Source of the DNA: Leucoraja ocellata
Taxonomy: Eukaryota
DNA: 64,000 bases
NCBI GenBank assembly: GCA_036785375.1
Contig: JAWMAR010000001.1
Span: forward strand, 18,414,001 to 18,478,000
Reading direction: 5' to 3'
Made by a program: the position numbers and the translations under genes. This document shows, in pieces, positions 23,833-63,192 of this stretch (positions within the stretch are counted from its first letter, which is position 1; each line of letters opens with the position of its first letter). The notes beneath the pieces are model-generated. The model did not search any database and had not been told where the DNA came from. It saw nothing but the letters and a program-made list of their open reading frames with translations.

Positions 23833-24427
23833 CAGTGCCCTCCATAATATTTGGGATAAAGACCCATCATTGGTTATTTAAGAAGGAACTGCAGATGCTG
23901 GAAAATCGAAGATACACACATTTGCTGGAGAAACTCAACGGGTGCAGCAGCATCTATGGAGCGAAGGAAATAGGCAACGTTTCGGGCCGAAACCCTTCTT
24001 CGGTCTGAAGAAGGGTTTCGGCCCGAAACTTTGCCTATTTCCTTCGCTCCATAGATGCTGCTGCACCCGCTGAGTTTCTCCTGCATTTTTGTCTACCCAT
24101 CATTAGTTATTTGCCTTTGTACTCCATAATTTGAGATTTGTAATGAAAAAAAAAAAAAAAATCACATGTGGTTAAAGTGCACATTGTCAGATTGTATTAA
24201 AGGCAATTGTTATACATTTTGGTTTCACCATGTAGAAATTACAGCTGTGTATATACATGGTCCCCCCATTTCAGGGCACCATAAATGTTTAAAAATACCC
24301 TTTAATTGAATCTGACAATGTGCACTTTAACCATGTGATTTTTTTCTATTATAAATCTCAAATTGTGGAGTGCAGAGGCAAATAAATAAACGATGGGTCT
24401 TTGTCCCAAACATTGTGGAGAGCACTG
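23833..24427. mobile_element. Non-autonomous Tc1/mariner deletion derivative (IR/DR type) containing a palindromic insertion
   Basis: TA|CAGTGCCCTCCATAAT...ATTGTGGAGAGCACTG|TA termini. Long inverted arms are homologous to the Tc1 ends at 45000-46821. Confidence 0.88.
23877..24096. mobile_element. Palindromic Penelope-derived short element with two head-to-head hammerhead-like motifs
   Basis: About 90-bp inverted arms centred near 24002. TSD CCATCATT(G/A)GTTA at 23864-23876 and 24097-24109. Confidence 0.85.
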
Positions 24428-24672
24428 TAAATATGTGCAAGGCTTTGAAGTTTCAATGAAGCAAAAATGAAATAAACAAAGGGAAAAAAAAAAAATCAAA
24501 TTAACACTTAGCCACAAACAGAAATGTAAAGCCACTCTCAAAGGTGTGGCCCCAGTGTCCTTCTGCATATTCGTTTTCTGTGTCGATGATCGATAGATAT
24601 TAATCGAGGCTGACGGAGATGATACAGCCATTAGAAAATATGTAATTGCTATTATATACATGTGATACTCAC

Positions 24673-24807
24673 CAACTGTAGCTGTGGGAGCTGAGGGAGT
24701 TGGCTGAGCATAGCTATTTGTTGAGGGGTTAGTTGAGGACCAAGGCTAAACAAGGCTGGGTTCAGGGCACCATTCGGAGTGGTATGCTTCAACATGGGGG
24801 CAGGAAC
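24673..24807 (-). CDS. TNRC6B: TNRC6B exon (VPAPMLKH...[18 protein letters not shown])
   Basis: ttgcag|GTT ... TTG|gtgagt; 135 nt, phase 0-0. Confidence 0.95.
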
Positions 24808-25460
24808 CTGCAATTAATCAAAATCATTCATTTGCTGTGTTACTGTCTGAAGAAGGGTCCCGACCCAAAATATTCTCCAGGGTTGCTCCCTGACCCACTG
24901 AGTCGCCGTAGCACTTTGTGTCTTTTGTTTTTAAAAGGAATTAATTGAGCGCAAATGATTGAAACTATAAATTTGACAAAGTTATCCAACCTAAAAAATT
25001 GCCAATTTAACTCAAAAGTCCCGATAATATATATCGTCTGTTCATTAGTTTCATCATGTACAGCAGCAGGGATGACAACGTGGGATTTTAGGTGTTCTTG
25101 TGCCTTGACTAGAATATTTATAATGATACAAGTGTTCGGGAATGAAACACTACAGGCATCCATTGACACCAATCTTCAAAAAAACTGGAAAGAAACAGCC
25201 AATAGTTCAAATCAATATTTTTTAAATTAATCTAAAACCTTAACCATCTCTCTTCCCACAGATACAGTTTACCATGCTGATTATTTCCAGCATGTTGTTT
25301 TTATCTCAGCTGCCAAACATCCAATGTTTAGCATATGAATCCAAGACCAAGAATTGAATGATTACACACAAAGTGCTGTCTTCCCAATCACATTTCCTTC
25401 CCCCATCCCAAAAAAAGGTGCAGGAATCATAAAAAGACGCGACAACTCAACTTTACGTAC

Positions 25461-25595
25461 CTGAGGGGGGGGCAGGAACTGCGGAGGCACTTGAGGCCGA
25501 AGGTTAGGCTGGGATGAATTCATGGACTGCACCTGAGGCGTGTGCACACCTCTGGATTGTGCTGTGCTGCTGCCAAATAAACCATGATTGCCATT
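25461..25595 (-). CDS. TNRC6B: TNRC6B exon ([16 protein letters not shown]...[19 protein letters not shown])
   Basis: cacacag|AAT ... CAG|gtacgt; 135 nt, phase 0-0. Confidence 0.94.
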
Positions 25596-26059
25596 CTGTG
25601 TGCGTACGAGAAAAAGAGACCGATAGGAAACGTTAAATCAATTAGATTTCCTTGTATTAAATATTTTTTATACAGCATAACTTGGTCTAATGCAACCAGA
25701 TAGGGAGACCACCTTAGAATCATATATACCCCCACAGAACAACAGAAACACATGTCTAAGATTAGCTATTCCACCTCACCACCATTCCCAAAGTAATGCA
25801 ACATTCCACTGTGGAGAACTAACATCTCAGAAGTATCAGCAAAAGGGGTCTATTGTAACTGTTACAGCTCCCTAAATGGATTATCTACCTTCCCTCAGGG
25901 CTTTAATATTTCTCCTTTGTATGTTTACTGAATTTCCTCCCACATGTCACCAGTGAATCAGGTTCAAATCCCAGTTGGACTCTGACATAATGTCACTCTT
26001 TCCCCTTCAGGAATGTTTATTGTCAAAGAGGCCACCTTGAGATCTCAGCTTCATTCAAA

Positions 26060-29463: not shown

Positions 29464-30038
29464 ATAATGTTAACATGATTGCTCATCACTCTGATATGAA
29501 GTCAATTCACTTGAGAAGAAGTCTGTTCAGATAGTAAATTAAACCTGATCCAACCATCCCCCAATCCAAATCCCACCCAAGCATTTATTTTCTTCTGTGT
29601 CCAACCGAGAGATATTATAAGAATATTGGGCTGCCATAAATGATACAAAGTCACACCCAAATAAAGACAATCTAAGGAAGTACATCATGCACCTCACGTC
29701 CCTGCCACCACCACCTACTCCAGCATTTTGTGTCTATCTTTGGTATTAACCAGCACCTGCAATTGTTTGTTTCTACATAACTAGAGAGAACATGGTCGGT
29801 GTGGACTCGGTGGGCCATAGGGCCCGCTTCCTTGCTATATCTCTGAACCAAGTACAAGATGAGCTGGCCCAGTGCCTAATCCCCAGTATTTTATTAGAAC
29901 ATACAACTGGCCTAAACACAATCATATCCCATCAGATTTGGGTCGCCATGTTCTGCTCCAGATAAATGATTTTAGGATGTTTGTGGAAGAATGGTAAGTA
30001 ATATAAATGTAAGTATTCTCTATCAGTGGAGACCTCAC

Positions 30039-30184: not shown

Positions 30185-31554
30185 CTGAAAGAAACAGAAT
30201 AATTTAACCATAGCTACGAACCTAGTTAAAATGCATCACTTAAATGCATCACTATAGATAACTGTCCAACAGGATATAGTTGTTAGAAGAAAATGTAATT
30301 ATGACCAGAAAACCTCAGCTTTAATTCATATTCTGGCCTTAATAAACAAACGGTATTTATATCACATGATACAGTGGTAGGCCACACATGTCCTCAAGTC
30401 TGCTTCATCATTCAATATCCGTGCTCACTGTCCTATGGGATCTCCATGTACCTCTATTCTTAAAAATATATTAATCTCAGCCTAAATGTACTTAACATTT
30501 CAACATCCATAGCCCTAGGGAGTTGAAGATTTCAAAGAAGTAAAATCAGAACTGCACATGCTGGTTTACACAAAAGGATCCAAAGTATGGAGTAATTCAG
30601 CAGGTCGGGCAGCATCTCTGGGGAACATGGATCCTTGTTTTCCATAGATGTTGCCTGACACGTTGAGTTGCACCAACATTTCGTGTCCTTATTTCTAGGA
30701 CTTATAGCATATAAAGGTTTTACTTTGTTTGCCCCAAATTAGCACTTATTCTGAGACTGTTCCCCAAATTCTACATTTGTCAGACTGAGGAAACAGCTTC
30801 CAAGCATTGACACTGTTAAGTCACTCTTGGAATCTGTTACATCTAAATCAGATCACCTCTCATTCTCCCTAAACCCAGATACAAGCCAGGTTCTCTTAAT
30901 CCCAAGAATCAATCCAGTGCACGGACTTCAAGGCAAAGATAATCTCTCCAGCATTTTGTGCCTATCTTATGAAATATACTCTCTCATTAGGTACAGATAC
31001 CAAAATTGCCCACAGAACTCCTGCTGCAGCCTCAAAATCCTGTACACTCTCCACAAAACTTTTACTCAAAACCTCTTGCAATAACTACCAACAAACCTGA
31101 TGTACCCCAATGCTTACAGTAATCTGCATTTATCCTTCTTACACAAGTACGCACATTTCTGAAAAATTGGAGTGCATTGTCCTATGTACTGATACCATTA
31201 TTATTAATAGGCTGCAGGCGGCTTGCTTATTGTTAACGATTGACCCATCTTACTTTATGATTTCAATTAAAGAAAAGGGTAAGTGATTAAAGCCAGAAAA
31301 TCAAAACAAAAACTGCAGATGATGAAATCTGAATTAAAAACAGAAAACGTGGATGCTTCAGATGTTTCTTTTTCTGCTTTGATTAAAGTCTGAACTGCAT
31401 CCTGATAAGAATCAGCAATCAGTACTAAGATTGTAATCGCATCAATTTTCAAACTCAGCGCTTCACTCGATAAGACTGCAATTTATCACAGGTACCAGAG
31501 CTACAATCATTTATCTCCTTGAAATAAATCATCTTAATCCCGTTTAATACTCAC

Positions 31555-33721: not shown

Positions 33722-33892
33722 TCCAAAGCCCATTTCCTGAAATTACAGGACACACATTATCATGGGTGATAGGTAAACATTTAAACTAATGTTTCCTCAT
33801 GATTTATCATCAATTTTGATACAAAATTAATAATCATGCTGCAAGAGTATTTTACCCAATGAACCAAACAGGTACCACAGGCCACTATGTCT

Positions 33893-34085
33893 AGGAAAGA
33901 ACTGCAGATGCTGGTTTAAATCAAAGGTAGACACAAAATGCTGGAGTAACTCAGTGGGACAGGCAGCATCTCTGGATAGAAGGAATGGATGGCGTTTCAG
34001 GTCTAGTCCCTTCTTCAGACTGATGTCAGGGGAGTGGGCGGGACAGAGATAGACAGTAAGACTGGTGGGAGAACTGGGAATGGGG
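33893..34085 (-). mobile_element. Penelope-like element terminal fragment with degenerate hammerhead core
   Basis: Closely matches 54195-54400 (actgcagatgctggtttaaatcaaaggtagacacaaaatgctggagtaact...cccttcttcagactgatgtcagg). Confidence 0.8.
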
Positions 34086-35038: not shown

Positions 35039-35146
35039 AGAATTCCTATTTCTTCACAATGCTGGCAAATCTTGCATTATAGCCATTTGCGTTACAGAAA
35101 TTTGCCCTTCACAAATCACCACCCAAAAGTTTGAGGAGCAGAATAA
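35039..35146 (+). repeat. 108-bp direct repeat, copy 2
   Basis: Matches 33614-33721. Confidence 0.9.
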
Positions 35147-36555
35147 AATTTTATCTCTCAAGAGTTTGTGCTGAAGGAAAAAGGTAGCTTTTAACTAAAC
35201 ACAAAATGTTATTATCGTTAAATTTGCATTTCCTAACATATGGGCAGCTAATGCAATTTTGTGTTACAGAAAATCACAGTGCAGGCCGATTACTAGAAAT
35301 GCAACTTGCCTGTAACAGAGGGGGTTGCCTGAAGTCAGCCCTTTCTAATTGAAATTGAAATAAGTCATCAATTTAATGCCAACAAGTGTGAAATAGATGC
35401 AGACTGTTGGGTGTTACAGCTCAGAAAAAAATCAAAGGAAAAAAGTACTGGAGGAATATTCTCACTGTTATTAGGTAGCAACTGCTTAGCTCTAGTTTGA
35501 GTTGCACTTATACAGTGCTGGGATACGGATGATAGATTATCTCACAGCAAGTCGCTGCAATCTGCTTACTGCTAAACTAGAACAAACTCTACATAGCGAC
35601 TACTATGATCAAAATTATATATTTTTAGCAGTACTAATGATTCGGACATGGAGACAGAATAACAATGTCGCACAATTTAAAAAATAACATGAACTTAGCA
35701 TTTTAAATTATTTTCATTAAAACTTTAAGTAAGTAAGTTTATTGACCAAGTATTCACATACAAGGAATTTGCCTTGGTGCTCCGCCCACAAGTAACAACA
35801 TGACATACAGTGACAGTTACGAATGACTCCGAAAACACTAAACATTAATAATAATAAAACATTAATGATAAAACACTATTGATCAAGCATGTGAACCAAC
35901 AAAATACCAGATCAAAGGGAGGCTATAGATTTTTGGCTGTTGAGAACTTCATTACTACTTCATTGACTGCGGATGGTTCGACTCCCCCGACCACGGGAGA
36001 ACAAAGAGGGAAGAAAATTAGACTTTATTCCCAGTGAGAAATGTGGGGAATCCGCTGTGGTGGATGTTTATGTTAACTTTTATGTAGTTGTGTGTCTTGT
36101 TGCTTTTTTTAGTATGGCAGTATGGTAATCAAGTTTCACTGTACCTTAATTGGTACATGTGACAATAAACTGACCCTTGACCTTGAACTATAAATTTACA
36201 CTGAGGAAATTGCACAACCACATGTTGTGAATCTAAAAATAATTTGGATTTGTTCAAGACAGAACTCTCTCTTGTCAACCAACCACTCCCCCCCCCCCCC
36301 CCCCCCACTGCACCCTACAAAACTTGTTAGATTGGGTTTTTGAGCTATTGTAATTATAAATGGATTTATGGAACCGTTATGTTGGAAAATTGAAATACCG
36401 GATGGTGCCCAGGAAGTTGGCTAGCAAACCACTGACATTGTTACAATGTTAACATTACCTCAGATCGCAAGGTGTTTTTTTTTTTGCAGATTACAGTAAA
36501 TTGGATGTATTCCCAAAGCTTCCCACCCCTCTCACTATTGCCAGGTTTTCTTCAA

Positions 36556-36720
36556 GGATAGACACAAAATGCTGGAGCAACTCATTGGGTCAGGCAGCAT
36601 CTCAGGAGAAAAAGAATGTGATGTTTCGAGTTGGAACCCTTCTTCAGACTGGAAGTAGAGGTGTAGGGAAGGAGGAAATATAAACTAGAGGCGAGAAAAG
36701 GCCAGAACCAATCAGGGCCG
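36556..36720 (-). mobile_element. Penelope-derived terminal fragment with hammerhead-like core
   Basis: Minus strand reads GTCTGAAGAAGGGTTCCAACTCGAAACATCAC. Confidence 0.7.
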
Positions 36721-36995
36721 AAAAAAAGTTGTTTTTTTTTTTACCGTCATTGCATGTGTCATTCAATGGCACTATCAAATATCGAGGTTAAATCGCACAG
36801 ATATCACAGCTTGTTCACTTCTTCAAACCTGCAAGTAAATTAAAGTTTCCAAGAACTGTCTATCATCATAGGGAATGCCACACAGAGCAAGACGCTGCCT
36901 CGACTTCTGTCTGAACACCGTTCATGCACCAAGTTCCCGAAAATGAGAAGGCACTTTGCGAACTGCTTATTTTCACAGAACTTTTCCTTTCTTAC

Positions 36996-37180
36996 CTTGT
37001 GAATTTTCTTCCCGCCTGAGGTCCAGTTAGCTGAGTTGTAGGGTGAACTACTCTCCTGAGTTCCAGTACTGTTCCACAGGCCCATTGAATTATCATCATC
37101 TTCTTCCCAGCTTGGGGGACGAGTATTTGCCACAGTAGGTCGATCGCCACCTCCCCATCCATCCTGCATTGATTTTGAAC
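36996..37180 (-). CDS. TNRC6B: TNRC6B exon ([14 protein letters not shown]...[18 protein letters not shown]...GGKKIHK)
   Basis: ttcag|GT ... AAG|gtaaga; 185 nt, phase 1-0; KSMQDGW and SWEE motifs. Confidence 0.96.
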
Positions 37181-40100
37181 CTGAAAAATTCATATTCAGT
37201 ATTTTATATAATTGTTACGTTTTATTTTTCCTTAGCCATTTGATGGCACTATAAAATAAATGTTAAATAACAGACATTACTGCTTGTTTACTGCTTCAAA
37301 CTGGCAAGTATATCAAAGATTCCTAGAACTAACTAGGGAAGGACTCGGAAAGTAAGAATTTAAAACAATTTATAAATAAGCTTTCTAGAAAAAAAAAAAT
37401 CACTGAAGACAGCTTCATGGTTAGACAACCTTTTAACAACTGAGACAGAACAGAAAGGTCATATATCAGTGAGTATCAAGTGCGGACAACTGAGAAAAGG
37501 AAAAAAAAATCCCTGCAAACCCTGAATAAAATCAGTTGTTTGAAAGCATGATCACAAAATTAAAGTTAAAAGGGAAAGTTACACACAGCTATAAAGAAAC
37601 ATATTTCTCGTTGCACAAAACATTGGCATCTGTCCTAAATCCTGAATTGGCTTTTAAGCAGTACAATTAAAACATTTCCTGTTTAGTATTTCTGGAGATC
37701 AAGTAAAGAGAAACAGCATGTTACCAGGGATCCCCAACCACAGTGATGCAACTCCGTTCTTCAAGCTCACTGAAGGTAAAAACTAGTACAATATTGAATC
37801 CAGGACCTTGTTAAAAGATTAAGCAATGGACAGGAAAATAGTGTCACGATATGAAGCTCAAATCCACGGATTGCAGAAATTTCCAAATTAAAAGTGGTAG
37901 TCTGTTGTCGAGCTTCGTTTGAAAGTGTCTAATCGAAAACAGGCAAAATGAGCTTCACTGGAACTTGAGATTAAAATTCCAAGTGTTATTGGATTTTAAA
38001 GTTTACAGCTCCTTTTACATAAACAGTCATTGCTCTACTCACGTGGCTTCCTGCACATGGAGTACACAGAGCTCAGTTCCAATCTGTCACTCATTCAATC
38101 GTATGATAGTCAATGTCGTATAATATTAATCTAATTCACGTATTACACGCCAAACACTAAGTACGCCAAACACTAAGTTGCTGGAATTTATTTACCAGCA
38201 AAATGCAGCAATTGCAGGAAATATATTTTCCTCAAAGGAACACAGTATGATTGAGTATGTTCCCAGAAGCCTTCCAGTAAGCAGATTGCTCAAGTGGCTA
38301 TTTTTAAACGTGGTTTTGGTGATGGAAAATAACAACTTTATATACGTTTGGCCTTACAAACAAGCCCTTATCCAATGGTCTTTCAGGTGAGCAGTTTGGG
38401 GTTAAAGCTGTGGGGAACCCAATGTATGGCAGTAACAAATAAATCGGCTTGTTTCTCATTGTCGATAATTAAACACAAGGTTTTCAAATCATTCAGCCAA
38501 TGGAAAAATCCTTTTGAATGCCGCCAATTGAAATAGCTGGAATTTTAACATTTAAACCAGGGCAAATCCTTAACACCTTCTGCAAAATTTGCTAAACTGT
38601 CGTACTATTTGTTGCCGTTCTGGCATGGATTTAATGCTCAGATCCTGCTTTCTCCTCGACGTTAGTCAGCAATGCCCTTCCCCAGCACTCTCAGCTAGCA
38701 ATTAGCACCCAACATTTCCCTCATTCCCTGTAGCATGATCTGCCCTAAACTCCAACAACCAATTCCCTTCCACCAGCTTTCATTTACCCCCCCCCACCCC
38801 CCATCCCAGCTCCCTTCATACAGTACTGCTCGGCTCAGTTACATTCACTCTGAAGTGACCTGATAAGTGAAACTGAAATACGTTTTATTTACCTGATGCA
38901 TGTTGAATCTGTCAGTCAGAGGCATATGAAGATATGAGATCAAATCTCTATTTGAATAGGCACAAATACAAATGGAAAAAAAGTACCTGAATGTCCTGCA
39001 GACGTACAAATGTTGATTTAATTCACTACTTTTGCTCTTATCAGCAACTATCTTAAACCCCATAAAAGTGGTACGGCAGTGGCTCAAATGAAACATTCAT
39101 TTCCCATTCACCTTTATAACGGGGCATTAAGTTTCGCTTGCTGCTTTGCAACAGCACTACAGAGTGCTGATATTTAGGAAACCAATGTTGGGTATCCCTA
39201 TGGAACTGCAGACAATGCACCAGAAAAATAAAGTCAGCTTGCAATGGTCACCATTGTTGAAGTAAATACTGCAGACAAGCACGTTACATGAAAGATAGGA
39301 TCTTTCCATTTAGCTAACACAGCCAAATCCAAGGGTGCTGTGTGTATTTTAAGCTCAAATTCGTGAGCACTGCTGTCAGCTAACAACTGGAAGCAAGCCA
39401 TGTTAATAACATTTTTGAAAAATATTTTTTAATGATCTTCCATTGACCAGAAGGAATCAGTTATACGTTCCACAGTGTTTTATTAATATCCCAAAGTAGA
39501 ATGCTGACAGATTTAAACTCACTTCCAATTAGGTTTACTTTGTTGAATAAAAATGCACACCAACTCAAGATTCCAAAAACAAGGATCTCCTTCTGGTGGT
39601 TATTATGATCAGATAGAAACTTGTAACATTCTTATGAAATCCAGAGATTCATTTCCCAGCAAGGAGAGGTACAACTTGTACAATACAAAGAAGCCTGTGT
39701 ATGCAAAACTGCAATCTGGACTTCCTGGCATCAGACTGCACCCGCTGCCAAGTTTTCGTGTAGGGCAGTAACTCAAGTGTAATTTGGAAGATGGGAGAGC
39801 TGGCATAAAGTAGTTATCAATACAAGGGCAACCATTGTGTTTAAAGTTTCTTAGATTGAAGCACAGATCACAAACAAAATTAATGCAATCCATTGTCAAG
39901 AAAATAGGGGAGACCACTTGGGGTGAATAGCTATCAAATTTATAACAAATTCATTTTGTACTGAAAACTGGAAAAATATCTACATTACAAGGTGATCAAT
40001 GCAAATTAAGGTAGTCATAACACATTAAATAATTTGTCAGCTAATAACGTGAGAGGACAACCAAAACGTCTACAAAGTCTTCCTCATTCTTTTCAGAATG

Positions 40101-41350
40101 TGCAGTATTTTGGGGCAATGACTACTTTTGAAGTGTCACCACAGTTATAATCCAGGAAATTACAGCAAATATGCAATGGAAACCTCCCACAAACAGCAAA
40201 GTCATCATTGGATGAATTGTGCTGCTGATATTGACTGGGATGATTATCACTGGGAACATCACCCCATCGTTTCATTAAAAACTTGCCATGAGATCTTTTA
40301 CGTGAGAAAGCAGATGAGACCTCAGTTATATGCCTTTTAATAAAGACAGAACCCCTAAAGAAGCATTGGCCCAGATGTTAGTTCTCCAGTCTCTGAGAAA
40401 AATTGGAAACCACATTCATCTGTTTCAGAAATGAGCATTGCCTACTGGGGTGTTGCTGAAACAAGTCCTGGATTAATTTCCTTCAAAGACAAAATGCTGG
40501 AGTAACTCAGCAGGTAAACCAGCATCTGCAGTTCCTTGTTGTTACATTATAATTTCTTGGAAAATATGTCCGGTCAGAGAAGAACATATGGGGATGTAAA
40601 GATGGAAAAACATTTTAAAATTATGCATCAGGAGTGCAGAGAAACGCCACACAGTCTTAATCTATGACTGTTTGTCTCCATCTGTTGAATATAAGCTGCA
40701 CATTAGAAACATAGAAATTAAGTGCAGGAGTAGGCCATTCGGCCCTTCGAGCCTGCACCGCCATTCAATATGATCATGGCTGATCATCCAACTCAGTATC
40801 CTGTACCTGCCTAGGGCAAAACAATAGCTAAACATGCTGCAGGAAAGGATGGTTCAGATCACCATACCAGACATGATTATAAAAAGTTAAACTCTTTAGC
40901 AAATTTGACATGTCAGGTAGACAAAATTAATGACACTGCATACACAGCATGGCCTCTCATAGGGAACTGTTTAAAAGTCTCCTTTTAAACACATGACTCA
41001 ACAAAATTGCTTTCAACAATGGCCAAAAGCACTTTACCATGCATAAAGAACTGAATGAGATGGGAATGCAATGTAGCTTTACAATTGAGAATAAACCATT
41101 CCCAATATTGTCAGGGCATTTGTAGTTAGCTAGGCTTTAATTCCATCCCATGCAAAAACAAGATATTTTACCACAAGAAAATCTGGAAAGACAGACCCTA
41201 CAATGCCTCACCGTTGTAAAAAGCTGCCATGTAAAAAAACATCTACAGAGAACCTCACTTCACTCTCAGCTTCATTTCAACATCAGTGCAATATGAAACA
41301 CAACGATCATCAAATAATAATTAAAAGGGGAAGAATTTGCAACTGCTTAC

Positions 41351-44330: not shown

Positions 44331-44999
44331 TGTATAGATTCAAGAAACCTGAAACCATCTTGAAGTACGCTAGAAACAAGGGTCGTTAATGAAGAAAGCT
44401 TGTAATCCTAACTAAATCTTGGTTACTTTGCAAACAGCATTAATTAATTGCCACCATCTTGAGACTGTTACCCATTATATTTCAGCAGCTGGCATCTCCA
44501 GGGGGCTGACTGATTGAACTTTGAGCCAACCGTTAACATGCAGAATAATAATCCCATGAACAAATCATTGTTGGCATGATAAACAAAGAGGAAATGTGGC
44601 CACAATAATGCAAAATTTGATTGATTCCTGTCATTTCATCGGTGGCCAGGATTTAAACTTCCAAGTTATAATTAATTTGTCTAATTAGGCTCTCAAAAAC
44701 ACTAGACTGGAACTGGTTAGGTCAGTTAAGTGAAAAAAATCTATGTAGAATGATGTGTTCTACGTTTCTATTAAGGTGGATTCAGGTCTACAACCCCCAC
44801 TTATTTAACAACAGTGATAGATGAGGGAAAAAAACCCTTTGGTCCACACCGACCATCAATCATCTGTATACCAGCTCTATGTCCTACACACCAGGGACAA
44901 TTTACAGAGACCAGTTAACCTACAAACCTACACGTCATTAGTATGTGGGAGGATATCAAAGCACCCGAAGGAAACCCACGCGGTCACAGTGAGAACATA

Positions 45000-47708: not shown

Positions 47709-48844
47709 TTATGTAAGAATGCTGTTCATCGATTACAGCTCAGCATTCAACACCATCATACCATCAAAACTGATCACCAAACTCGGTAACCTGGGCATCG
47801 ACCCCTCCCTCTGCAACTGGATACTGGACTTTCTAACCAACAGACCCCAGTCTGTGAGGTTAGACAAGCACACCTCTTCAACCCTCACCCTGAACACCGG
47901 CGTTCCACAGGGCTGTGTGCTGAGCCCCCTCCTCTACTCCCTCTTCACCTATGACTGCACACCTGTACATGGTACTAACACCATCATCAAGTATGCAGAT
48001 GATACAACGGTGATTGGCCTCATCAGCAACAACGATGAGCTGGCCTACAGGGAGGAGGTCCAGCACTTAGCAGCATGGTGCGCTGACAACAACCTGGCCC
48101 TTAACTCCAAGAAGACCAAGGAGCTCATTGTAGACTTCAGGAAGTCCAGAGGCGGCACGTACACCCCCATCCACATCAACGGGATGGAGGTGGAACGTGT
48201 TTCTAGCTTCAGGTTCCTGGGAGTCAACATCTCCGATGACCTCTCTTGGACCCACAATACCTCTACTCTGATCAAGAAGGCTCATCAGCGTCTCTTCTTC
48301 CTGAGGAGACTGAAGAAGGTCCATCTGTCTCCTCAGATCCTGGTGAACTTCTACCACTGCACCATCGAGAGCATCCTTACCAACTGCATCACAGTATGGT
48401 ATGGCAACTGCTCTGTCTCCGACCGGAAGGCATTGCAGAGGGTGGTGAAAATTGCCCAACGCATCACCGGTTCCTCGCTCCCCTCCATTGAGTCTGTCCA
48501 AAGCAAGCGCTGCCTGCGGAGGGCGCTCAGCATCGCCAAGGACTGCTCTCACCCCAACCATGGACTGTTTACCCTCCTACCATCCGGGAGGCGCTACAGG
48601 GTCTCTCCGTTGCCGAACCAGCAGGTCGAGGAACAGCTTCTTTCCGGGCGGCTGTCACTCTACTCAACAACGTACCTCGGTGACTGCCAATCACCACCCC
48701 CCCCCCCCCCCCCCCCCTGGACACTTATTATTATTTATTCAAATCGTTTGCTATGTCGCTCTTCCAGGGAGATGCTAAATGCATTTCGTTGTCTCTGTAC
48801 TGTACACTGACAATGACAATTAAAATTGAATCTGAATCTGAATC
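47709..48844 (+). mobile_element. 5'-truncated, young-looking Rex1/Babar-type non-LTR retrotransposon (RT domain)
   Basis: [55 protein letters not shown]. (AATCTG)n tail. TGAGTTTC duplicated at 47701-47708 and 48845-48852. Confidence 0.9.
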
Positions 48845-51308: not shown

Positions 51309-54194
51309 TTTACACATAAATATTAAGTCATTAGCTGCAAAGGTCTTGGGGGTTTCTTGAAAATTTTTAAAATACTATATGAATGCAATTTTTCTTCCAG
51401 CTACACATCAGTTAAATTGGTCATTTATTAAAATGTAGTTACCTGGGAACATTGGGCTTGGAAACTAATGATTGTACAACAGTCATCCACTTCAAATATG
51501 AGCGTGAAATGGTACATTTTCAAGCTATGCCTACTAACTTTGTATAATAACTGTAAAATAGGCAAGATGCTCAAGGCTTTTTTGACAAATTCATTGAACT
51601 ACATTAAGCGACTGTAGGCCAAAGATACTAATATTTTGTTCAGCCTCTGCAAGACTGCTGCTGTTTTTACTAATTTAGGCAATTATTCCACATGCACCTA
51701 ATCTGTGGGGTGCACGTAATAACGCCAATCAAATTCATTTAGAATAGGAATAAGAACTGCTAACAATATTGTGCAAGGTTAGAGTCACAAGCAAAACAGT
51801 TCCAAAAGCTGCCAACCGAGTAAATATTAACACGAGCCATCTGCACAAATAATTTATGGATTAGCAGTCAGAGAGATGAAAATGGGATTCATCAGAGACT
51901 AAAGGTGTAAGCCGTGTTATCAACAGCACTCACTTACAGAAAATCTACGACTGATTTCCTTGCACTTACCACCACCCCGCCAAATGGGATTTCTGAATGT
52001 GTATTTAAATCTGGAGTGCTGATATCACTCGAGCATTAATGCAGAAAAACTATTGAACCTCTCAGCGATAAGGAATAAATTGGAAAAAGCTGGAAACACA
52101 CAGATCAGTAACTATCTCAAACAGCAATTTACCTCCCACTTTTACTCCTGTTGCAAACTGACATTTTCAAAGACTTCCAGCAATTTCTTCTAATCATTAA
52201 GCTTTTATTTGCAGTTTGGGCAGAAAGTATGTCATAATCTTACTAAAGAGCAAAGCAGCCCCAAACGACTGAATATCCTACTCCTGCCACTTTCTATGTT
52301 TTCTTTCTTTACCAATTGTGGTTGATGATTAGCTCTTCAGTCTTTAGTTATCACTACCCTTAACCAGCTCGAGGAGTTCGGCAGCATCAGCACAAAGATG
52401 ACACTCTTTATCCACTCCTTTGTCCATCACTTGCTACAGAAGCGTTTGTTTTCAAGCCTCATGTTTTAGTGGCTTCCACATTAAGACAGGTCCAAACCTA
52501 ACAAAGACGGGGACCATGAAAAGGGATAAAGTTTTGAACATATAATGGACAGAGAAGGGGGGAGGGGGGGGGAACCATAAATCTGGAAGAGAATTTGAGG
52601 GTTAAGACATTTCAGTTTGAAACGGAGAAGGGTGCAAGAGGGTAAAGAATGAGGAAACAAACAAATAGCTAAATTCACAGCTATATTTACAGCTACAAAA
52701 CCCCTGGATTTCAAAATATGTAACCCAGACATTCACAAGGAGAAATGGTTTACGGAATCCAGCTTTAAGGATGATGACTATTTAATGGATACAATGTGCA
52801 TCAAGGTTGAAATCACAAATAAAAATCTGCCCAAGGTGTCAAACACCCATTATAGATTGTACCTTGTCTATCTTAGATTTATTGGGCACCATTTTTGCAA
52901 AAATCAAAATATACATCTACCAGCTGATAACACAGTCCAGAATTCAATTTTAAGATAGGATGCCATATGAAGCTAATGAGAAAAGCCCATTAAATCCCTT
53001 CCACGTAACATTGCATCCCTGTGCACAAATTACACACAGAAGGCAAAATAACTGCAACAGCCAGGTGGCTCCTATCTTCACGGTGGCACAGTAACACAAT
53101 AGTTAGCACTGCGGAATCACAGCTGCAGGGACTCCATACAGCATAAAAAGATGACTCCATATTGCATAAATTGAATTCTTAATTGAAACTGTGCATGCTG
53201 TTGCAAAGTGGACATTCTATGACAAAGCAATACCAAGATATGAAAACATATTTGCTTTCAAAGCCTTTTCCAACACTGCATGAGACCCAGGGTGAAAAGG
53301 GGACACCAATCTCTCCAAATGTATTACATTATCTACAGAGCACAATGTGGACCCATCAGTCTTTACACAGGAATAGCAGTTCCTCTGTTCAGTCCATCAA
53401 ATCTAATTTACAATTGGTTGTGATGGCAGCTCGTTTTGACCCATTTGAACTTTCTTTCCCCATCTTCATACTTATGCTTTGAACTTATTTTAAATGCTTC
53501 AGTATCAATAACCTTTTGAATCAGTGCACTCCACATCAGCACCCGATTTGAACAAAATTGCTTCTTCTGGAATTGATTTTTAACTAGGTTACCTCAAATG
53601 CCACGGTTATATTCCCTTGAACTGGATTCCACCTCCTGAGGGAAAGGATTGCTTCCTTACCATACAGTCAAATTCTTTCTTCACATTTAATGTTTTAGTA
53701 TATTAAAAGTCAGATATTGCAAATTAATTTATAGATTTGAAATGCACAGTTGAGATCTCATGCATTCCCAGCGATATTCTTTGATATAAAAGGTTATTAG
53801 CAACATTTGTCCAGTTTCCCTTAAAAAATGTGATTCATTCAGAAGTAATTGTTGGCTTGCACAATGTCAAAATAGAAGATGCTTAAATAAACTGCTCAAA
53901 ATTCCAGCAAGTAAAAGCAATGGGTGATGAAACATTAAGTCATTCAACCCTCTCGATTCTGACACAGCTAACTCATGTGGCACGTGGTTGAAGATGCTAT
54001 AATTAGGATCCTATTACATACGTATCTGGGTAATAGCAGTCCTAAAGGGAAGACAAGGGATAGAGAATGAATTAACTAATGCTGGTTACCTGCACTGATC
54101 ACATTCTAAATACTCACCTGAAAACTAAACATTTAAAAGAGCAGAAAGCAAGAGCCTTCCAAAGTTGAGAAGACTAACACCACTCGTGTACGAG

Positions 54195-54983
54195 TAGGAG
54201 AGAACTGCAGATGCTGGTTTAAATCAAAGGTAGACACAAAATGCTGGAGTAACTTAGCGTAACAGGCAGCATCTCTGGAGGGAAGGAAAGGGTGACGTTT
54301 TGGGTCGAGACCCTTCTTCAGACTGATGTCAGGCGAGAGTGGGCGGAACAGAGATAGAAAGTAGTCAGAGACAGGAAGACTGGTGGGAGAACTGGGAAGG
54401 GGGAGGGGATAAAGAGAGAGGGAAAACAAGGGCTATTTGAAGTTGAGTAGTCAATGTTCATACCGTGGGGTGTAAACTACCCAAGTGAAATATGAGGTGC
54501 TGTTCCTCCAATTTGCACTGGGCCTCACTCTGACAATGGAGGCAGCCCAGGACAGAAAGGTTAGCTTGGGAATGGGAGGGGGAGTTAAAGTGCTGAGCAA
54601 CCGGGAGATCAGGTAGGTTTAGGCGGACTGAGCGGAGGTGTTCAGCGAAACGATTGCCGAGCCTGCGCTTCGCTGATGTACAGAAGTTGACACCTAGAAC
54701 AGCGGATTCAGTAGATGGAGTTGGAGCAGGTGCAAGTAAACCTCTGCCTCACCTGAAAAGACTGTCGTGGTCCTTGGATGGAGTCGAGGGGGGAGGTAAA
54801 GGGACAGCTGTTGCATCTCCTGCAGTTGCAGGGGAAGGTACCTGGGGAGGGGGTGGTTTGGGTGGGAAGGGATGAGTTGACCAGGGAGTTGCAGAGCGAA
54901 TGGTCTCTGCGCAAAGCAGAAAGAGGTGGAGATGGGAAGATGTGGCCAGTAGTGGGATTCCATTGGAGGTGGCGAAAATGTTG
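54195..54983 (-). mobile_element. Truncated Penelope-like retroelement (Zn-finger linker plus GIY-YIG endonuclease remnant, and terminal repeat with hammerhead-like core)
   Basis: RRDHSL..SLV...PGTFPCNCRRCNSCP...FTCTCSNSIY followed by CSRCQLLYI and RFAEHLRSV...PVAQHFN remnants. Terminus GTCTGAAGAAGGGTCTCGACCCAAAACGTCACC at about 54291-54323. Confidence 0.85.
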
Positions 54984-55100
54984 ACTTCAAAAAGAGGATT
55001 ATATGCTGAAGGATATATTCATGAATGAACTCTCTCTGTGTTCATCTGTGCGCATAGATATAGATAGAAATGTGTCTGCTTCCAAAACAAAGTCTCTCAC

Positions 55101-55122
55101 CTTTGGTTTTTTGTTCTGTAAC
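55101..55122 (-). CDS. TNRC6B: TNRC6B 22-nt microexon (VTEQKTK)
   Basis: gtttcag|GTTACAGAACAAAAAACCAAAG|gtgaga. Joins TG CCC GAA to give VTEQKTKVPE, as in the recalled TNRC6B N-terminus. Confidence 0.9.
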
Positions 55123-55759: not shown

Positions 55760-56770
55760 CATTTGCAGATGCACCTTAAGGCTACATGGCTAGCCTTATG
55801 CTGTGCTCTCTTGACACCCATGACTGTGTGGCTAAGCACAGCTCCTACAAATTTGCCAACAACACCATTATTGTTGGCCGATTACAGGTGGTTTGAGGCA
55901 GCGTACAGGCAAAAAACTGAACACCTGGTGACTGATGCTGCCATAACAACCTCCCTCTCAACGCAAACAAAACCAAGGAACTAATTCTGTTTGAAGGAGG
56001 GGTCCATCCCAAAACATCACCCATCCTTTTCTCCACAGATGCTGCCTGACACAGAGGTAGACAAAAGTGCTGGAGAAACTCAGCGGGTGCAGCAGTATCT
56101 ATGGAGCGAAGGAAATAGGCAACGTTTCGGGCCAAAACCCTTCTTCAGACCAACACATTGTGTCTGTCTTTGGTATAAACAAGCATCTGCAGTTCCTTCC
56201 TATACTAGGAACTAAATGTTGACTTCAAAAAGAGGAAATAGGGAGACCTTGTGACAGTTTTCATTGGTGGCTCAGCAATGGATAGATTTGGCAGCTTCAA
56301 ATTCCTAAGCATTAACATCTCAGAAGATCTGTCCGGAGCCCACCACATAGATGTAATCAGAAAGAAGGAGCACTAGTGTCTTTATATTCATAGAAGTTTC
56401 AAGAAATTCAAGCCATGTCACCAAATACTCCAACAAACACTTACTGATGCACTGTTGAAAGCATCGTGATTGCTTGCTTGGTGCAGCAATTATATCGCAC
56501 TGATATGCAAGAGGCTACAGAAAGAGGTGAAATTGGCCCGGTGCATCATGAACACAGCCCTTCCTACCATTGAAAGCATCTACATGAGGCCCTGCCTCTA
56601 GAAGGTGGCATCTACCATCAAGAATCCCCACCATGTGTGCTGTGTACTCTTCTCGTTGCTATGCTGCTACACTTGGGGGCATGAAGTACAAAAGTCTGAA
56701 GCACAACCCCACCAGGTTCGGGTTCAGCTACTTTCCTACGACCATCATGTCCTTGAACCAATTTGCACAA
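55760..56770 (+). mobile_element. Old Rex1/L2-like RT fragment interrupted by Penelope-derived pieces (about 55990-56205)
   Basis: Remnants acccatgactgtgtggc, aaaaccaaggaacta, agcttcaaattccta and gaaagcatc, colinear with 47709-48844. Confidence 0.7.
56118..56150 (-). ncRNA. Minimal hammerhead-ribozyme-like motif with intact core
   Basis: GUCUGAAGA-A-GGGU UUUG GCCC-GAAAC-GUU-GCC: CUGANGA, stem II, GAAA, palindromic ACGU stem III, UH site. Activity is not shown. Confidence 0.6.
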
Positions 56771-57530: not shown

Positions 57531-59819
57531 TCCTGCGTACTGCAGACAGCTTTTTGCAGGAGAAGCTTGCTGATGATGCACGGTAAGTGACTACAAGTTT
57601 AGGGGCTTGAGCTACAACGTGAATTGAAAAACTGCATTCACATAACCAACGATGCAAAAAACTCAAAAAATTAAACATCGAGTTTGAAGTCATTATAAAT
57701 GGCCAAATTGGCAGTTTCTAATTGCTTTGTGTTTTGATCATCTCGTCCATCTACCTGCAACTTCATATTACAAGCATTTTGTTTCCAAAATGTACAATCA
57801 AGTGAAATTAAACAATAGGCCACTAATTTAAAACATATTCTAGTATGCAACAATGTAAATAGATTTGTATAATGGAGTACGCCTTCATTATCGTAAAGCA
57901 GCAGAAATAGCCAGCTCTGATGAAGAAAGAGAAAATGAGTTCTCCAAACCTGAACTGGCCATATCTACTGCAGTCCATGTGATATGGGCTCGTTTTTCTC
58001 CCTCCATTTTGATCCTTTAGCATCCTGATCTCCTGCGCACATCTTCCTGCCTTGCATTTTTCACACTTTGCATTCCCACTGTCTCACAGTCCCTATTAAC
58101 CCACTGAATGTATTATCTCTACAACCTATCCCAATGGCAACCCTGGCCTCACCCTGTTACAGATATTCCCTTTTGTTCTATCCACCCCTTTCCCATCTTT
58201 AACTTCAAACTATTTTTTTCTCTCTTGTCCAATTATAACAACAGGCCTCTAGCCCAAAATATTACAATTTTCTTTCTGCAGCTTCTATTTTTATTTCTAA
58301 AATATGTATTTTGATTTTAATTCACAATTGCAGTTACTCTGCAGTATTAATTAATCATACACCACACTTTGTCTCTCACCCCACCATGCCTCATCAAGCT
58401 TTCTGATAAGATCTGAAATTAATATCCAAGAGGCTCTTAACACTTCTGGATAAAATGTCCTCAATTAACAAGGAAGAAGAGGTCAAGACAGTTATCAACT
58501 TGTCAAAAACCTTACTTACTCTATAATATTCTCCTTCTGATGTATGAATTCCTAACAATCATTCTCTACTCTATTACTATGCTACTAGTTTATCACCTCG
58601 TTCATGTCGACAAGTAACAAATAATACTCCCAAATCTGTTCTCACAAACCAATTTTATAACCAACAATCAAATGAGACACAATCAATCAACAAAGTCTGG
58701 ATTAGAACCTCACAATAAAAGGTGAAAAACCAATTAGATGATGCTACCCGTTTGTATTATCAACAGTTTATTCCAACTATATGGGGCAGGTTATGGGCAG
58801 GGCCACAAGAAACTGCACTGGATGATTGAAAACCATAATGCGTCAAATTTCCTTCTGTAACAGTGGACATTTTAATGGAATGAAATACATGATAAAGGAA
58901 AAAAATCTGATAAAGAATCTGCCAGTTATACATTTCTTAATTCTAACCAGACTCTAAAGGCCATTCAGAAAAAAACTGAATTCAATAGCCATGTGTTTTT
59001 CAAAAAGTGAGCTGTCACACTTTAAACTCAGACAGTAAAGATTACTCTTGTCATGAAATTGCATTTATCCTTCCTTTCTACTTTAGCTTCATATTCCTTA
59101 TGTTTGCAACCACAACAAGAGCAACAAAAAAGACTAAAGTGCTGGAGTAACTCAGCAGGTCAGGCAGCTGAAGAATGTGGAGAGGTGACGTTTTGGGTCA
59201 GGACCCTTCTTCAAGTGCAAAATCTGAGGAAGTGGTTGAGGCTGGGACTGGTATGGTAATTCATAGAATCTTACAGCCTATCATGCCTACAATAGTTCTT
59301 TCAGAAAGTGCTCTGAATTTGAAATTCATACCAAAGAGCGACTAGGCCATGTTAGGGCTCTGTTTTCCCTGCTTTCTTTTATTGGTCAAGTTTCCTGGGC
59401 TTGGCATTGGATATGCCCTCTGCAGCTAAACATTCAATTCTTACCTCAGATTCTCACCACATCTCCCTGGCATTTCTTACAGTCACAACAAGGTGTCATA
59501 GTTGTGGGAGCTTTTTCAAGATGTTGTGACCGATCTAGGAATTCCCAGATCAGCCTCCATGACATCAATTGGGTTTTTTTAGAAAAACAGGGGAAACTGG
59601 TGTCCCATATATGAGGGTGTTCCATATATAGAATTGGTGTCCCATATAAAGAGTCCATGGAACAGATAATATGTGTGTCGGATACAGGATGTCCTGCACA
59701 ATCAATACTGCTCATCTGGCAGCCCAGCCTTGCTAATGCGTCAAAAGAGTAAATACAAGAACTGTATTGTTTGGAAAGTGAGATTTAAAGAGCAACCAAT
59801 CTTGTTTTTTTCCATAGTG

Positions 59820-60002
59820 TTTAAGAAGGAACTGCAGATGCTGGAGAATCGAAGGTACACAAAAAAGCTGGAGAAACTCAGCAGGTGCAGCAGCAGCTAT
59901 GGAGCGAAGGAAATAGGCAACGTTTCGGGCCGAAACCCTTCTTCAGACTGGTCCATAGATGCTGCTGCACCTGCTGAGTTTCTCCAGCTTTTTTGTGTAC
60001 CT
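59820..60002. mobile_element. Partially palindromic Penelope-derived short element
   Basis: Same TTTAAGAAGGAACTGCAGATGCTGG start as 17695 and 23877. Inverted arm at 59952-60002. Imperfect duplication TTGTTTTTT(T)CATA(G/C)TG on both sides. Confidence 0.85.
59915..59950 (-). ncRNA. Minimal hammerhead-ribozyme-like motif with intact core
   Basis: CAGU-CUGAAGA-A-GGGU UUCG GCCC-GAAAC-GUU-GCCU, sense to the TNRC6B pre-mRNA. Activity is not shown. Confidence 0.62.
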
Positions 60003-61749
60003 TTGTTTTTTTCATACTGCTGTTCATGACCTAACATCAAACATGGTTTATTTAACTGCATAAACATTACTCAAGCGAGTTTGTAGTCTGAATCATACAC
60101 TTGTGTTGATGTGTACAATTCCTATTGTAACATGAAGGATTTTATTTTGCTAATTCTCTGCCTTGTTGCTTGTGGAATTATAATCACTCCACTGTGGCAC
60201 ATACTACCTTAAAGGTCAAATCTTACATTGAAGCTACAGCAGTGAGCACTGGCAACTTTCAACCTTTGCAGGACACAGCAAAGAGCTGATCCTAACTCTA
60301 CTTAAGATTTGCCCATGCTTTCCAGCATGGATCAATAAACAGCTAATGAAAAAACTGCCCTTTTCAGCCAAACTCAGCACTGACCATGATTTAATCTAGG
60401 ATTTTACTGTGTTTATTCAGGGACAAAGGAATGCAAAATTATGACCAAACCGAACCATATTACAGAAGCTGCAATAATTGCACAATTTCACAACAGAATC
60501 ATTGCCACCGCCAGAACATCACCAGTGTTGGCCACATGTACCGATCTGATACACGTTAATAATGATATAATGCTTAACGAGCTGCTTTTTACCCTGCTGA
60601 AGGAGTGTTAAATTTGATATGAGCAAAGCACTGATATATTCTATTTTCTAGGGAAATGTACAGGTAATGTTTAATTCACATAGAAATGAAAATTCAGGAG
60701 GAAATTCATTATTTAAATAATGGACTGCAGGCAATTCTGTATTATGGGGAGGAGGAGGGGTCATGTTCCTGGAGGGATGCACATTGCAATTTTCTGTAAC
60801 AAAGCATCAACAAATGTTAATTTACTTACTTATCTTTCCACATAAAATCTGCAAGAGTGAAATCTATTCCATTTCTAAAATATTTGGGTAGTGATTTATG
60901 ATTTCTATAAAGGCAAATTTCCATTACCTTACGTTTTGGATGTGGTTAAGGCAGCCATCTGCAGATTGGGATGGTGAGATATGGTGGGTTGGGGAAGGAA
61001 ACTCACAAAATGTATTTTATGAAGCACCAGATCACCTGGAGGGAAACGGCTACAGATGTGGTCATGTAGAGGAACAGACTCAATGCTTATGTGCAACTTC
61101 AGTTTATTGTGTATCCATGAGGAGGATACGAACAGTAAAAATACGATGCGAGTTATAATATTAAATTAGAAAAAATTTGTAGTGGGCCCATATGTACAGG
61201 AACGCTACTCAGCTAATAGAAGACGTTAGTACACAAAAACAGGAGTCACAAGCAAAGATCTTGCTCAAATGGCATTGCATGAAAGGGCAGCCTTATAACA
61301 TGAATGCAATCGAGCACAATGAGAACATTCAGCTTTTGGATTGCTGATTTGATGGTGCAAGGATGACAGCACTGTTGCAGGGGAAAAGAACATAAGAAAA
61401 ATAGACTTTTATGACTAGAAATGGCAGTAGAATAGATACAGACCACTGTGTGATGAATAGAAGGGGAAAGATCAACATGGAACAAATACACAAAGAAAAA
61501 TTTAACACTAACGACACTGTAAATAAGTCAAAACAAATTTCAGAAAAGGATTGGGGTGGTAAGACCATCACTATACAACCAAAAATAGAAAATGTGATTT
61601 GTATGGCAAGCAAATTTAAGGTAATTTCAACGGTTCAAAGGTCTGTTTATTGTCACGAGTACCACGTAAGGTACAGTGAAACTTGAATTACCATTTCAAC
61701 TGTATATTCACAGCAAGGACATAAGCAAATGATGGATCTCATGTTATAA

Positions 61750-61845
61750 GCTGAAGAAGGGTCTCGACCCGAAACATCACCTATTCCTTTTCTCCACAGA
61801 GATGCTATCTGACCCGCTGAGTTACTCCAGCTCTTTGTGTCTATA
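61750..61845 (+). mobile_element. Penelope-derived short element with hammerhead-like core
   Basis: CTGAAGAAGGGTCTCGACCCGAAACATCACC...gatgct...cccgctgagttactccagc. Confidence 0.8.
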
Positions 61846-62149
61846 TTCACCAACATCAATGTTAGAAATGGGTAGACAGTGACATTAAAATATAGGTTGG
61901 TGAGCCCTATGTGACTCACATAAAATAATTAGCAGGCATATGAGAATATTGGTGCTAAGTCACAGTCATAGAGCACAGAATCAGGCCCATCAGCCCATCA
62001 AGTTTGTGCCATCCAATAGAGCTTAAAAAAAAACCTAATGGTTCTGTGGGGGAAAATGTTGTTCTGCAGATCTTGAGGGATATTCTGCAAATAGGACTCA
62101 GATTACCGCTAAATATTTAACGCATGGCACATATAATTTTTTTTATAGG

Positions 62150-63040
62150 CTGGAGCTAAACATGCCGGGGTATTCGATATTCAGGAAGGATAGACAGAAT
62201 AGGAAGAGGAGGTGGGGTGGCACTGCTGGTTAAAAAGAGGAGATGAATGCAATAGCAAGGAGAGACATTAGCTTGGATGCTGTAGAATCAGTATGGGTAG
62301 AACTGCGAAATAGCCAAGGACAGAAAACGCTTGTTGGAGTTGTGTACAGACCACCAAACAGCAGTAGGGAGGTTGGGGATAGCATCAAGCAGGAAATTAG
62401 GGATGCGTGTAGCAAAGGTACAGCAGTTATCATGAGTGACTTTAATCTAAATATAGATTGGGACAACCAAATTGGTAGCAGTGCTGAGGAGGAGGATTTC
62501 CTGAAATGTATACGGGGTGGTTTTTTAAACCAATATGTAGAAGAGCCAACTAGAGGACAGGCCATCCTGGACTGGGTATTGTGTAATGAGTTAGTGATCT
62601 TGTTGTGCAAAGCCCCTTGGGCAACAGTGACCATAATATGGTAGAATTCTGCATTAGGATGGAGAGTGACACAGTTAATTCAGAGATTAGGGTCCCGAAC
62701 TTAAAGAAAGGGGACTTTGAAGGTATAAGACGGGAATTGGCTAGGATAGACTGTCAAATTATATTTAATGGATTGACAGTGGAGATGCAATGGCAAAGAT
62801 TTAAAGACCGCATGGAAGAACTCCACAAATTGCAGATGCAGTATAATGTGGGTAAATGTGAGGTTATCCACTTTGGTGGCAAGAACAGGAAGTCAGATTA
62901 TTATCCGAATGGTGTCAGATTAGAAAAAAGGGAGGTGCAACGAGACCAGGTGTCCTTGTACATCAGTCACTGAAAGTAAGCATGCAGGCAGTGAAGAAAG
63001 CTAATGACATGTTGGCTTTCATTGTGAGAGGATTTGAGTT
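62150..63040 (+). mobile_element. CR1-like LINE ORF2 remnant (APE endonuclease plus internally deleted RT region)
   Basis: ESVWVEL, VGVVYRPP, IMSDFN, LDWVL, LGNSDHN, then QMQYNVGKCEVIHFGGKN; frameshifted. Confidence 0.88.
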
Positions 63041-63094
63041 GGGAAAACAAAACTATAGCAAGAAAAAAAATTAAATGAAAAAGACCTAAATACA

Positions 63095-63192
63095 TGTCTG
63101 AAGAAGGTTCTCGACCCGAAACATTGCCTATTTCTTCGCTCCATAGATGCTGCCTCACCCGCTGTTTTTTTCCAGAATTTTTGACTACCTTC
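63095..63192 (+). mobile_element. Penelope-derived short element with hammerhead-like core
   Basis: GTCTGAAGAAGGTTCTCGACCCGAAACATTGCCTATTT...gctccatagatgctgcctcacccgctg. Confidence 0.8.

Follow-up and report, generated by a model that had tools for sequence, protein, structure and literature searches.

Short hammerhead-bearing repeats at a TNRC6 locus of Leucoraja ocellata are probably truncated 3′ ends of a Penelope-like element

We analyze a 64,000-nt stretch of the Leucoraja ocellata genome (GCA_036785375.1, contig JAWMAR010000001.1, positions 18,414,001 to 18,478,000 of the forward strand; hereafter, “the window”) in which short repeats with hammerhead-ribozyme-like motifs are scattered along a TNRC6/GW182 gene. 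These repeats are very likely the 3′ termini (pseudo-long-terminal-repeat, or pLTR, ends) of a Penelope-like element (PLE) with an endonuclease, probably of the Neptune clade and present in several subfamilies; internally primed reverse transcription would have left them as heavily 5′-truncated or solo ends. On the best reading they are ordinary for the PLE class and call for no separate circular-RNA element. The anatomy seen in the window runs from an open reading frame (ORF) remnant through a pyrimidine tract and a minimal hammerhead to a short end at about +95 and a tail end at about +130, where hammerhead position C3 is +1 and the unit spans about -4 to +130. The ends of the window copies were not set by ribozyme cleavage. 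An earlier note, made from the letters of the window, had described a retrozyme-like element mobilised by Penelope; the Penelope derivation stands, and the copies were most likely inserted by a PLE reverse transcriptase (RT) and endonuclease, whereas the retrozyme family does not, as we find no tandem units, a minimal hammerhead and no copies starting at the cleavage site.

Results

Census of the repeat family

A profile built from the window copies gave 24 matches, which resolve into 22 arms in 17 insertions once two pairs of matches, each the halves of an interrupted arm, are merged; together they cover 1908 bp, or 3.0% of the window. As a null, the sequence was shuffled twenty times with dinucleotides preserved (Markov); this yielded 2 matches, the best at 9.2 bits, against up to 107 bits for the real sequence. 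Likewise, a 27-nt core pattern allowing up to 3 mismatches matched 7 times in the window and never in 100 shuffles, while a looser core regular expression matched 28 times, 7 of them in the family and the remainder unrelated. All 15 coordinates at which the earlier note had placed repeats were recovered by BLAST and the profile, and further arms were found at 18014-18121, 56150-56205 (a tail part), 25234-25311 and 30943-30968 (both weak). Arms of subfamily A1 are 91-95% alike, which marks A1 as young; other pairs are 66-86% alike, and between subfamilies the flanks have diverged by about 20-25%. Searched twice for stray copies of the unit, bacterial and archaeal genomes gave 0 matches each time. 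A literature search found no paper on this repeat family in cartilaginous fish; the Dfam and Repbase catalogues lay outside that search.

One copy adjoins a Penelope-like ORF remnant

The link to PLEs is carried by one copy in which unit and ORF are contiguous:

54192..54460, minus strand: 3′ pLTR of the ORF-bearing copy, with a pyrimidine-rich stretch, an AG/initiator (Inr)-like site at -4..-1, core, short end and tail
54467..54983, minus strand: broken C-terminal ORF remnant of an endonuclease-bearing PLE, with an RT-endonuclease linker holding a CX4CxxC Zn-finger, then a GIY-YIG region

The core of this pLTR has C3 at 54321 and G12 mutated to A. Homology thus bears out, at 54192-54983, the earlier proposal that the unit is joined to a GIY-YIG/Zn-finger remnant. 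The remnant has one in-frame stop and one frame change and is 5′-truncated; it is 54-59% identical to RT-endonuclease proteins of Stegostoma and Hypanus (54-58% for the homologues P0001 and P0003), and its best protein relatives come from sharks and rays. The homologues run upstream into RT motifs, and longer relatives carry both PF01541 and PF00078; one protein with PF00078, P0023, overlaps the start of the remnant at 66%. The remnant is probably from a Neptune element, a clade assignment made from its linker and host rather than from an RT tree, because the CX2-5CxxC Zn-finger linker between RT and endonuclease marks Neptune and is shared with Nematis (PMC8557442), and a vertebrate survey recovered only Neptune and Poseidon PLEs.

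By eye, the C-terminus of the zebra-shark protein P0001 reads into a peptide like that of the window hammerhead region (7 of 11 residues), and its C-terminal codons are able to spell a minimal hammerhead, a match given with no null run for comparison. The N-terminus of P0023 is unlike the unit translation by eye, and therefore no ORF start inside the unit is shown. A search among proteins of 54-174 residues with the open frame across the hammerhead (54136-54432) gave 6 candidates, none significant.

Two 3′ ends, tail-out palindromes and target duplications

The 3′ ends fall into two groups about 34 nt apart. Read by eye, 12 of the 22 arms (both weak arms included) are short-ended at about +90 to +100, 9 are tailed, with an extra 34-37 nt to about +130, and 1 is intermediate. 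The optional tail at one end of PLEs is 30-40 bp (PMC8557442), and that of D. virilis is 34 bp (PMC2377424). Five insertions are tail-out palindromes:

23877..24098, both strands: two subfamily-A arms, the minus arm tailed and the plus arm short-ended; cores at 24003 (minus) and 24005 (plus)
17693..18121, both strands: subfamily A, arms meeting inside stem II
59819..60001, both strands: subfamily A; the minus arm (-4..+130) keeps a minimal hammerhead that is fully intact (C3 59946), and the plus arm covers about +42..+95
30548..30687, both strands: older and coreless, arms beginning at about +43
40487..40540, both strands: small; the minus arm has a short end, and the plus arm consists of tail only (+102..+125)

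In all five, a tailed arm faces a tailless one (p about 0.03 on the assumption of independent arms). Target duplications are clear at 4 of the 16 insertions tested (exceeding 99% of 399 randomly chosen flank pairs) and borderline at 1, with observed lengths of 8-18 bp. Three of the five palindromes have clear ones: a perfect 14 bp at 17681-17694/18122-18135, 18 bp at 23862-23879/24095-24112, and 11 bp at 59802-59812/60003-60013. A flanking duplication was looked for around 30548..30687 and not found.

Two of the palindromes also show their place in a sequence of insertions. The one at 23877, whose 89-nt arms are 92% complementary, lies in the terminal repeat of a Tc1-type miniature inverted-repeat transposable element (MITE), and the site is uninterrupted in a relative near 45000. 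In the other, the left arm of 17693..18121 was later split by the 3′ end of a long interspersed nuclear element (LINE) at 17776-18013, with 5 bp repeated at the junctions; we take this LINE to be CR1-type from its translation, which is like that of CR1 C-termini.

Four palindromes have overlapping arms and therefore need two templates or fold-back priming, the latter having been proposed in PMC3846280. The arms of 40487..40540 copy parts of the unit that do not overlap, as would be expected from twin priming on one RNA.

The same combination of two 3′ ends, tail-out inverted arms and target duplications is known from ordinary 5′-truncated PLE insertions (PMC8557442, PMC3846280, PMC11167929). 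For PAc, a Poseidon element of the anole, PMC11167929 reports that each target strand is nicked by the element's protein and then extended, that reverse transcription begins at two internal sites bounding the tail, and that hammerhead cleavage is dispensable for insertion. Two-site, two-strand priming of this kind predicts the anatomy of the window copies.

By analogy with PAc, the element's protein would nick both strands of the target. Reverse transcription would begin at two internal sites of the RNA, spaced about 34 nt, and proceed in the direction of its 5′ end. A single arm would result where one strand is primed, and where both are, a tail-out palindrome, one arm tailed and one tailless, between target duplications. 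Most cDNAs would end after 50-130 nt, which would explain the large excess of solo ends over copies with an ORF. As part of the pLTR, the hammerhead would be carried along, probably under selection in active master lineages and decaying in inserted copies; cleavage by it would require a dimer or the PLE protein.

A minimal hammerhead core

A recognisable hammerhead core is present in 12 of the 22 arms. It reads CUGAAGA and a single bulged A, then stem II (4 bp, with a loop of 4 nt), then GAAA, CG and UH. By sequence and position the motif belongs to the known class of minimal hammerheads, and it agrees with the published minimal consensus of PLEs, CUGANGAH-G..C-GAAA-palindrome-UH (PMC4209133 Fig S3), as expected of the Penelope-type minimal type I hammerhead that had been proposed. 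The 5-bp stem II with a 2-nt loop drawn earlier was rejected; 4 bp with a 4-nt loop fits better.

The earlier statement that many copies contain the full motif does not hold as worded: all catalytic-core letters are kept in 6 of the 12 cores, and only 2 (C3 56148 and C3 59946) are fully intact in catalytic letters, 4-bp stem II and ACGU palindrome. Element by element, CUGANGA is intact in 9/12, the bulged A and G10.1 in 12/12, GAAA in 8/12, the palindrome 15.1-16.1 in 6/12, U16.1 in 11/12 and H in 12/12. Helix II has 4 pairs in ten cores and 3 in two (95.8% of cells paired), and helix I has 2 bp in six, 3 bp in two and fewer in four. G12 is changed to A in 4 of the 12, every case in a CpG. Judged by these sequences, catalysis in most inserted copies is unlikely.

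Whether the core is kept better than its flanks, a check suggested in the earlier note, comes out modestly positive within the window: conservation is 94% in core columns and 86% in the columns downstream (permutation p 0.03; the rows are related). Inferred subfamily ancestors are identical at all core positions. The note's further claim, that stem II varies between subfamilies while keeping its pairing, fails, the difference being a one-sided U-A versus U-G in the same 4-bp stem. Covariation in the helices is likewise not supported, with one two-sided change and a score of 0.242 that 79 of 500 shuffles reach (12 related rows), and a covariance-model search against Rfam at E<=5 returned no hammerhead family among its 7 matches. 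The miRNA matches that it placed on palindromes, rejected as sub-threshold (mir-559, 60.5 bits against a cut-off of 95; MIR7996; MIR1507), arise because palindromes form long hairpins.

These results bear on whether the motif is a ribozyme at all. It might be a non-catalytic relic or a protein-binding hairpin here, master elements included, as the short helix I, the preference for alternative folds and the missing covariation would suggest. Stem III is absent but for a predicted 4-bp ACGU duplex between two molecules (-1.7 kcal/mol), and published minimal hammerheads show weak cleavage or none in vitro, with 8 of 9 Xenopus dimers uncleaved. We nonetheless consider a relic unlikely, as the core is the same in the inferred ancestors while the flanks diverge, and the related PAc ribozyme cleaves when its protein is added (PMC11167929).

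Both intact hammerheads lie on the minus strand, in the sense of the host transcript and 3.8 kb apart, and a dimer within a single pre-mRNA is therefore formally possible; predicted folds place both within or beside long hairpins.

Retrozymes as an alternative

Non-LTR retrozymes consist of tandem 150-450 bp units with canonical hammerheads and yield circular RNA (PMC7229834; bioRxiv 2026.07.22.740005). Applied to the window, this would mean that oligomeric transcripts self-cleave into monomers, which circularize and are copied by a PLE RT. A type I hammerhead core and kinship with PLEs fit such a scheme, and the preprint, which traces vertebrate retrozymes back to pLTRs, lists them with a mean consensus of 363 bp and records them in its one sampled chondrichthyan (bioRxiv 2026.07.22.740005). 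The structure of the window copies nevertheless makes it highly improbable. None of 13 Tandem Repeats Finder rows holds tandem units, and no head-to-tail unit occurs in the window, where the nearest same-strand cores are 732-1827 bp apart in separate insertions. At 95-130 nt the unit is shorter than the 150-450 bp of PMC7229834, and its hammerhead is minimal rather than canonical, two types that PMC7229834 keeps apart. No arm (0/22) starts at the cleavage site (+28/+29) or is circularly permuted, few cores are intact, and both ends obey PLE geometry. The absence of starts at +28/+29 is also why we rejected self-cleavage as the origin of the 5′ ends. For the window copies the retrozyme reading is largely refuted; arrays may exist elsewhere in this genome, because the preprint reports pLTR-derived retrozymes in a chondrichthyan.

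Evidence weighing against truncated PLE ends, and the 5′-end peak

Several observations count against the truncated-PLE explanation that we prefer. Clear duplications are lacking at 11 of the 16 insertions tested. The remnant pieces in the window have no Pfam match, and the Pfam GIY-YIG match of the homologues (E 0.002) is under the cut-off. No RT of this family was found in the window by tblastn, nor does the window hold a full-length or partial-tandem element, so that the master element is unseen; a partial tandem forming a 5′ pLTR would be expected of long copies only. Helix I, at 2 bp (3 bp in two copies) against 3-5 bp for the minimal-hammerhead class, appears to be below most published rows, and with the 4-bp helix II lies at the short end of the published range, unlike most rows of PMC4209133; 2 bp occur also in its D. 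virilis, Culex and Oikopleura rows (Fig S3). Core conservation is modest and the copies are non-independent, the best downstream 11-column block reaching 90%. Predicted folds prefer pairings other than the hammerhead (full unit z -1.3). The mechanism was established in a Poseidon element, not a Neptune one.

A further point concerns the 5′ ends: 9 of the 22 arms start at -4..+3, within 7 nt of the 5′ edge of the ribozyme, which random truncation leaves unexplained (binomial probability 1e-6 to 1e-3, for a span taken as 145 to 60 nt). Three arms extend upstream, where they share a 73-80% pyrimidine tract whose last letters are CAG, one base before the 5′ neighbour of the core. This site resembles a 3′ splice site and also an initiator element. 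In D. virilis, the pLTR intron ends on the 5′ side of helix I (PMC4209133). A literature search aimed at this peak listed no paper that addresses it.

The simplest reading of the peak is run-off at a defined RNA 5′ end, and it would refine the truncated-PLE explanation. The short units might be full-length run-off cDNAs of a fixed 95/130 nt, with subfamily A perhaps a non-autonomous element of about 130 nt, a possibility that we advance tentatively. Equally doubtful is the corresponding template RNA, which would start at -4..-1 (an Inr-like start, or an acceptor after a tiny first exon), bind the PLE protein, be primed at +95/+130 and be reverse-transcribed as far as its 5′ end. The clustered starts, the pyrimidine-CAG site and the D. 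virilis intron end all agree with this, as does PAc, whose cDNA length tracks the RNA 5′ end (PMC11167929). Upstream pLTR or ORF sequence is found in 0 of 8 subfamily-A arms, and the A1 arms are young; the contrast with the other arms, of which 3 of 14 have it, is not significant (Fisher p 0.27). The 9 arms also share no common first-exon sequence upstream, and target microhomology might equally bias the junctions. Subfamily A is thus a possible short non-autonomous subfamily. In its fullest form, short copies would be “strong-stop-like” run-off cDNAs made by a PLE RT priming at two internal sites, with the RNA 5′ end 1-4 nt before the core, and subfamily A would perhaps multiply only as such, as a non-autonomous element in monomers or palindromes whose intermediates are neither tandem nor circular; this we think rather unlikely.

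Other insertions in the window

The remaining copies are as follows:

33889..34085, minus strand: 5′-truncated pLTR, subfamily B; about 65 nt of upstream pLTR, core C3 34018, tail
36544..36688, minus strand: truncated pLTR with a pyrimidine tract upstream; the core (C3 36647) is intact and the palindrome decayed, and the 3′ end is of the intermediate kind
55987..56205, plus strand: older copy, decayed core C3 55991, tailed; interrupted by a younger subfamily-A copy
56056..56150, minus strand: young arm of subfamily A spanning -2..+95; its minimal hammerhead (C3 56148) is fully intact
63096..63193, plus strand: subfamily-A arm, -2 to just beyond the short end; C3 63098
61751..61846, plus strand: short-ended arm from +1, with an intact catalytic core and lacking stem I
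59131..59214, minus strand: arm from +1/+2; decayed core, short end
24845..24923, plus strand: arm from -2; decayed core, internal deletion, short end
29716..29771, plus strand: coreless arm, +72 to tail
25234..25311, plus strand: weak, older related arm, +21..+100 (E 5e-4, 15.3 bits)
30943..30968, plus strand: weak fragment, +71..+96 (E 0.024, 9.9 bits); near the best shuffle at 9.2, may be chance

The subfamily-B copy has U16.1 mutated and shares 84% identity with the 54192 copy across 209 columns. The older copy at 55987..56205 has a 9-bp duplication (55976-55984/56207-56215) and apparently lost about 10 bp where 56056-56150 is nested in it in opposite orientation. At 63096..63193, the catalytic core is intact, stem II and palindrome are damaged, and an 8-bp duplication lies exactly at the ends (63089-63096/63193-63200; null fraction 0.028).

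A perfect 23-bp direct repeat (54976-54998/56214-56236) joins two of these neighborhoods over 1.2 kb, with a host exon between its copies: one copy overlaps the 5′ junction of the ORF remnant and the other abuts the target duplication of 55987-56205. It is possibly a templated insertion at the junction.

The MITE that hosts the 23877 palindrome (23831-24429) shares its ends, at about 88% identity, with a Tc1/mariner-type element at 44997-46823 that has terminal inverted repeats and a decayed transposase-like interior. Folding predictions give the stretch 23913-24095 a nearly perfect hairpin of 89 bp (about -160 kcal/mol). It lies in an intron of a gene acting in the microRNA pathway and is a possible substrate for editing or small-RNA processing.

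Host gene and setting

The host gene, on the minus strand, is TNRC6/GW182, with PABC-binding, Ago hook and RRM features (window 10409-55119). The evidence comprises TNRC6-PABC_bdg Pfam matches at 17241-17432 and 21032-21313, an Ago_hook Pfam match at 36843-37214, a GW182 RRM match at 11858-12022 (2WBR, E 3e-16), and a GW-rich exon of 864 codons at 41313-43904. The large host exon has no Pfam match, and a PDB sequence search with its end gave nothing significant. The N-terminal exons are putatively TNRC6B-like. The repeats stay out of the located TNRC6 exons, the exon mapping being partial; that copies past 55.1 kb are intronic presumes that the 22-nt exon at 55098-55119 is an early TNRC6 exon. 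Relative to the host transcript, 7 hammerhead cores are sense and 5 antisense, with no orientation bias.

Other features of the window are two LINE remnants on the plus strand, one at 47704-48810 (RT and ALKBH8_N, 368 codons open) and one at 62234-62973 (an AP-endonuclease fragment), an assembly gap of 200 N at 63456-63655, and an inverted pair at 28678-28729/29199-29250, 79% complementary, with a B-box-like motif in one member. This pair is probably two tRNA-derived short interspersed nuclear element (SINE) copies.

Discussion

The window repeats resemble several described systems. [quoted passage not shown] None of the 56 rows of Fig S3 in that paper comes from a cartilaginous fish.

With endonuclease-bearing Neptune PLEs as described in PMC8557442, the window shares the C-terminal GIY-YIG region, the CX2-5CxxC linker, a 30-40 bp tail at one end, heavy 5′ truncation and inverted 5′-truncated copies; unlike them, it contains no RT, no partial tandem and no visible microsatellite targeting. 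PAc (PMC11167929) likewise has a hammerhead about 100-150 nt upstream of two tail-separated 3′ ends, and its both-strand priming would account for the window palindromes, but it belongs to another clade, and no conserved ORF start lies across the window hammerhead region. Non-LTR retrozymes (PMC7229834; bioRxiv 2026.07.22.740005) have in common with the repeats a type I hammerhead, a short non-coding unit and PLE ancestry; the window copies differ in having no tandem array or canonical hammerhead, a shorter unit, and ends that come from PLE priming sites.

The long palindromes would, by prediction, fold to near-perfect hairpins in host pre-mRNA, and the data here imply no host function for them. 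For the family itself, the repeats add a shark/ray-type genome to those in which minimal hammerheads are known at Penelope ends. The 5′-end peak at the ribozyme edge could locate an RNA start or a splice site, and the dense, sharp-ended copies are material for an in vivo test of two-site, two-strand priming in Neptune elements. If the run-off reading is true, the likely thousands of genomic copies would record, in vivo, the two ends of PLE reverse transcription as well as two-strand priming.

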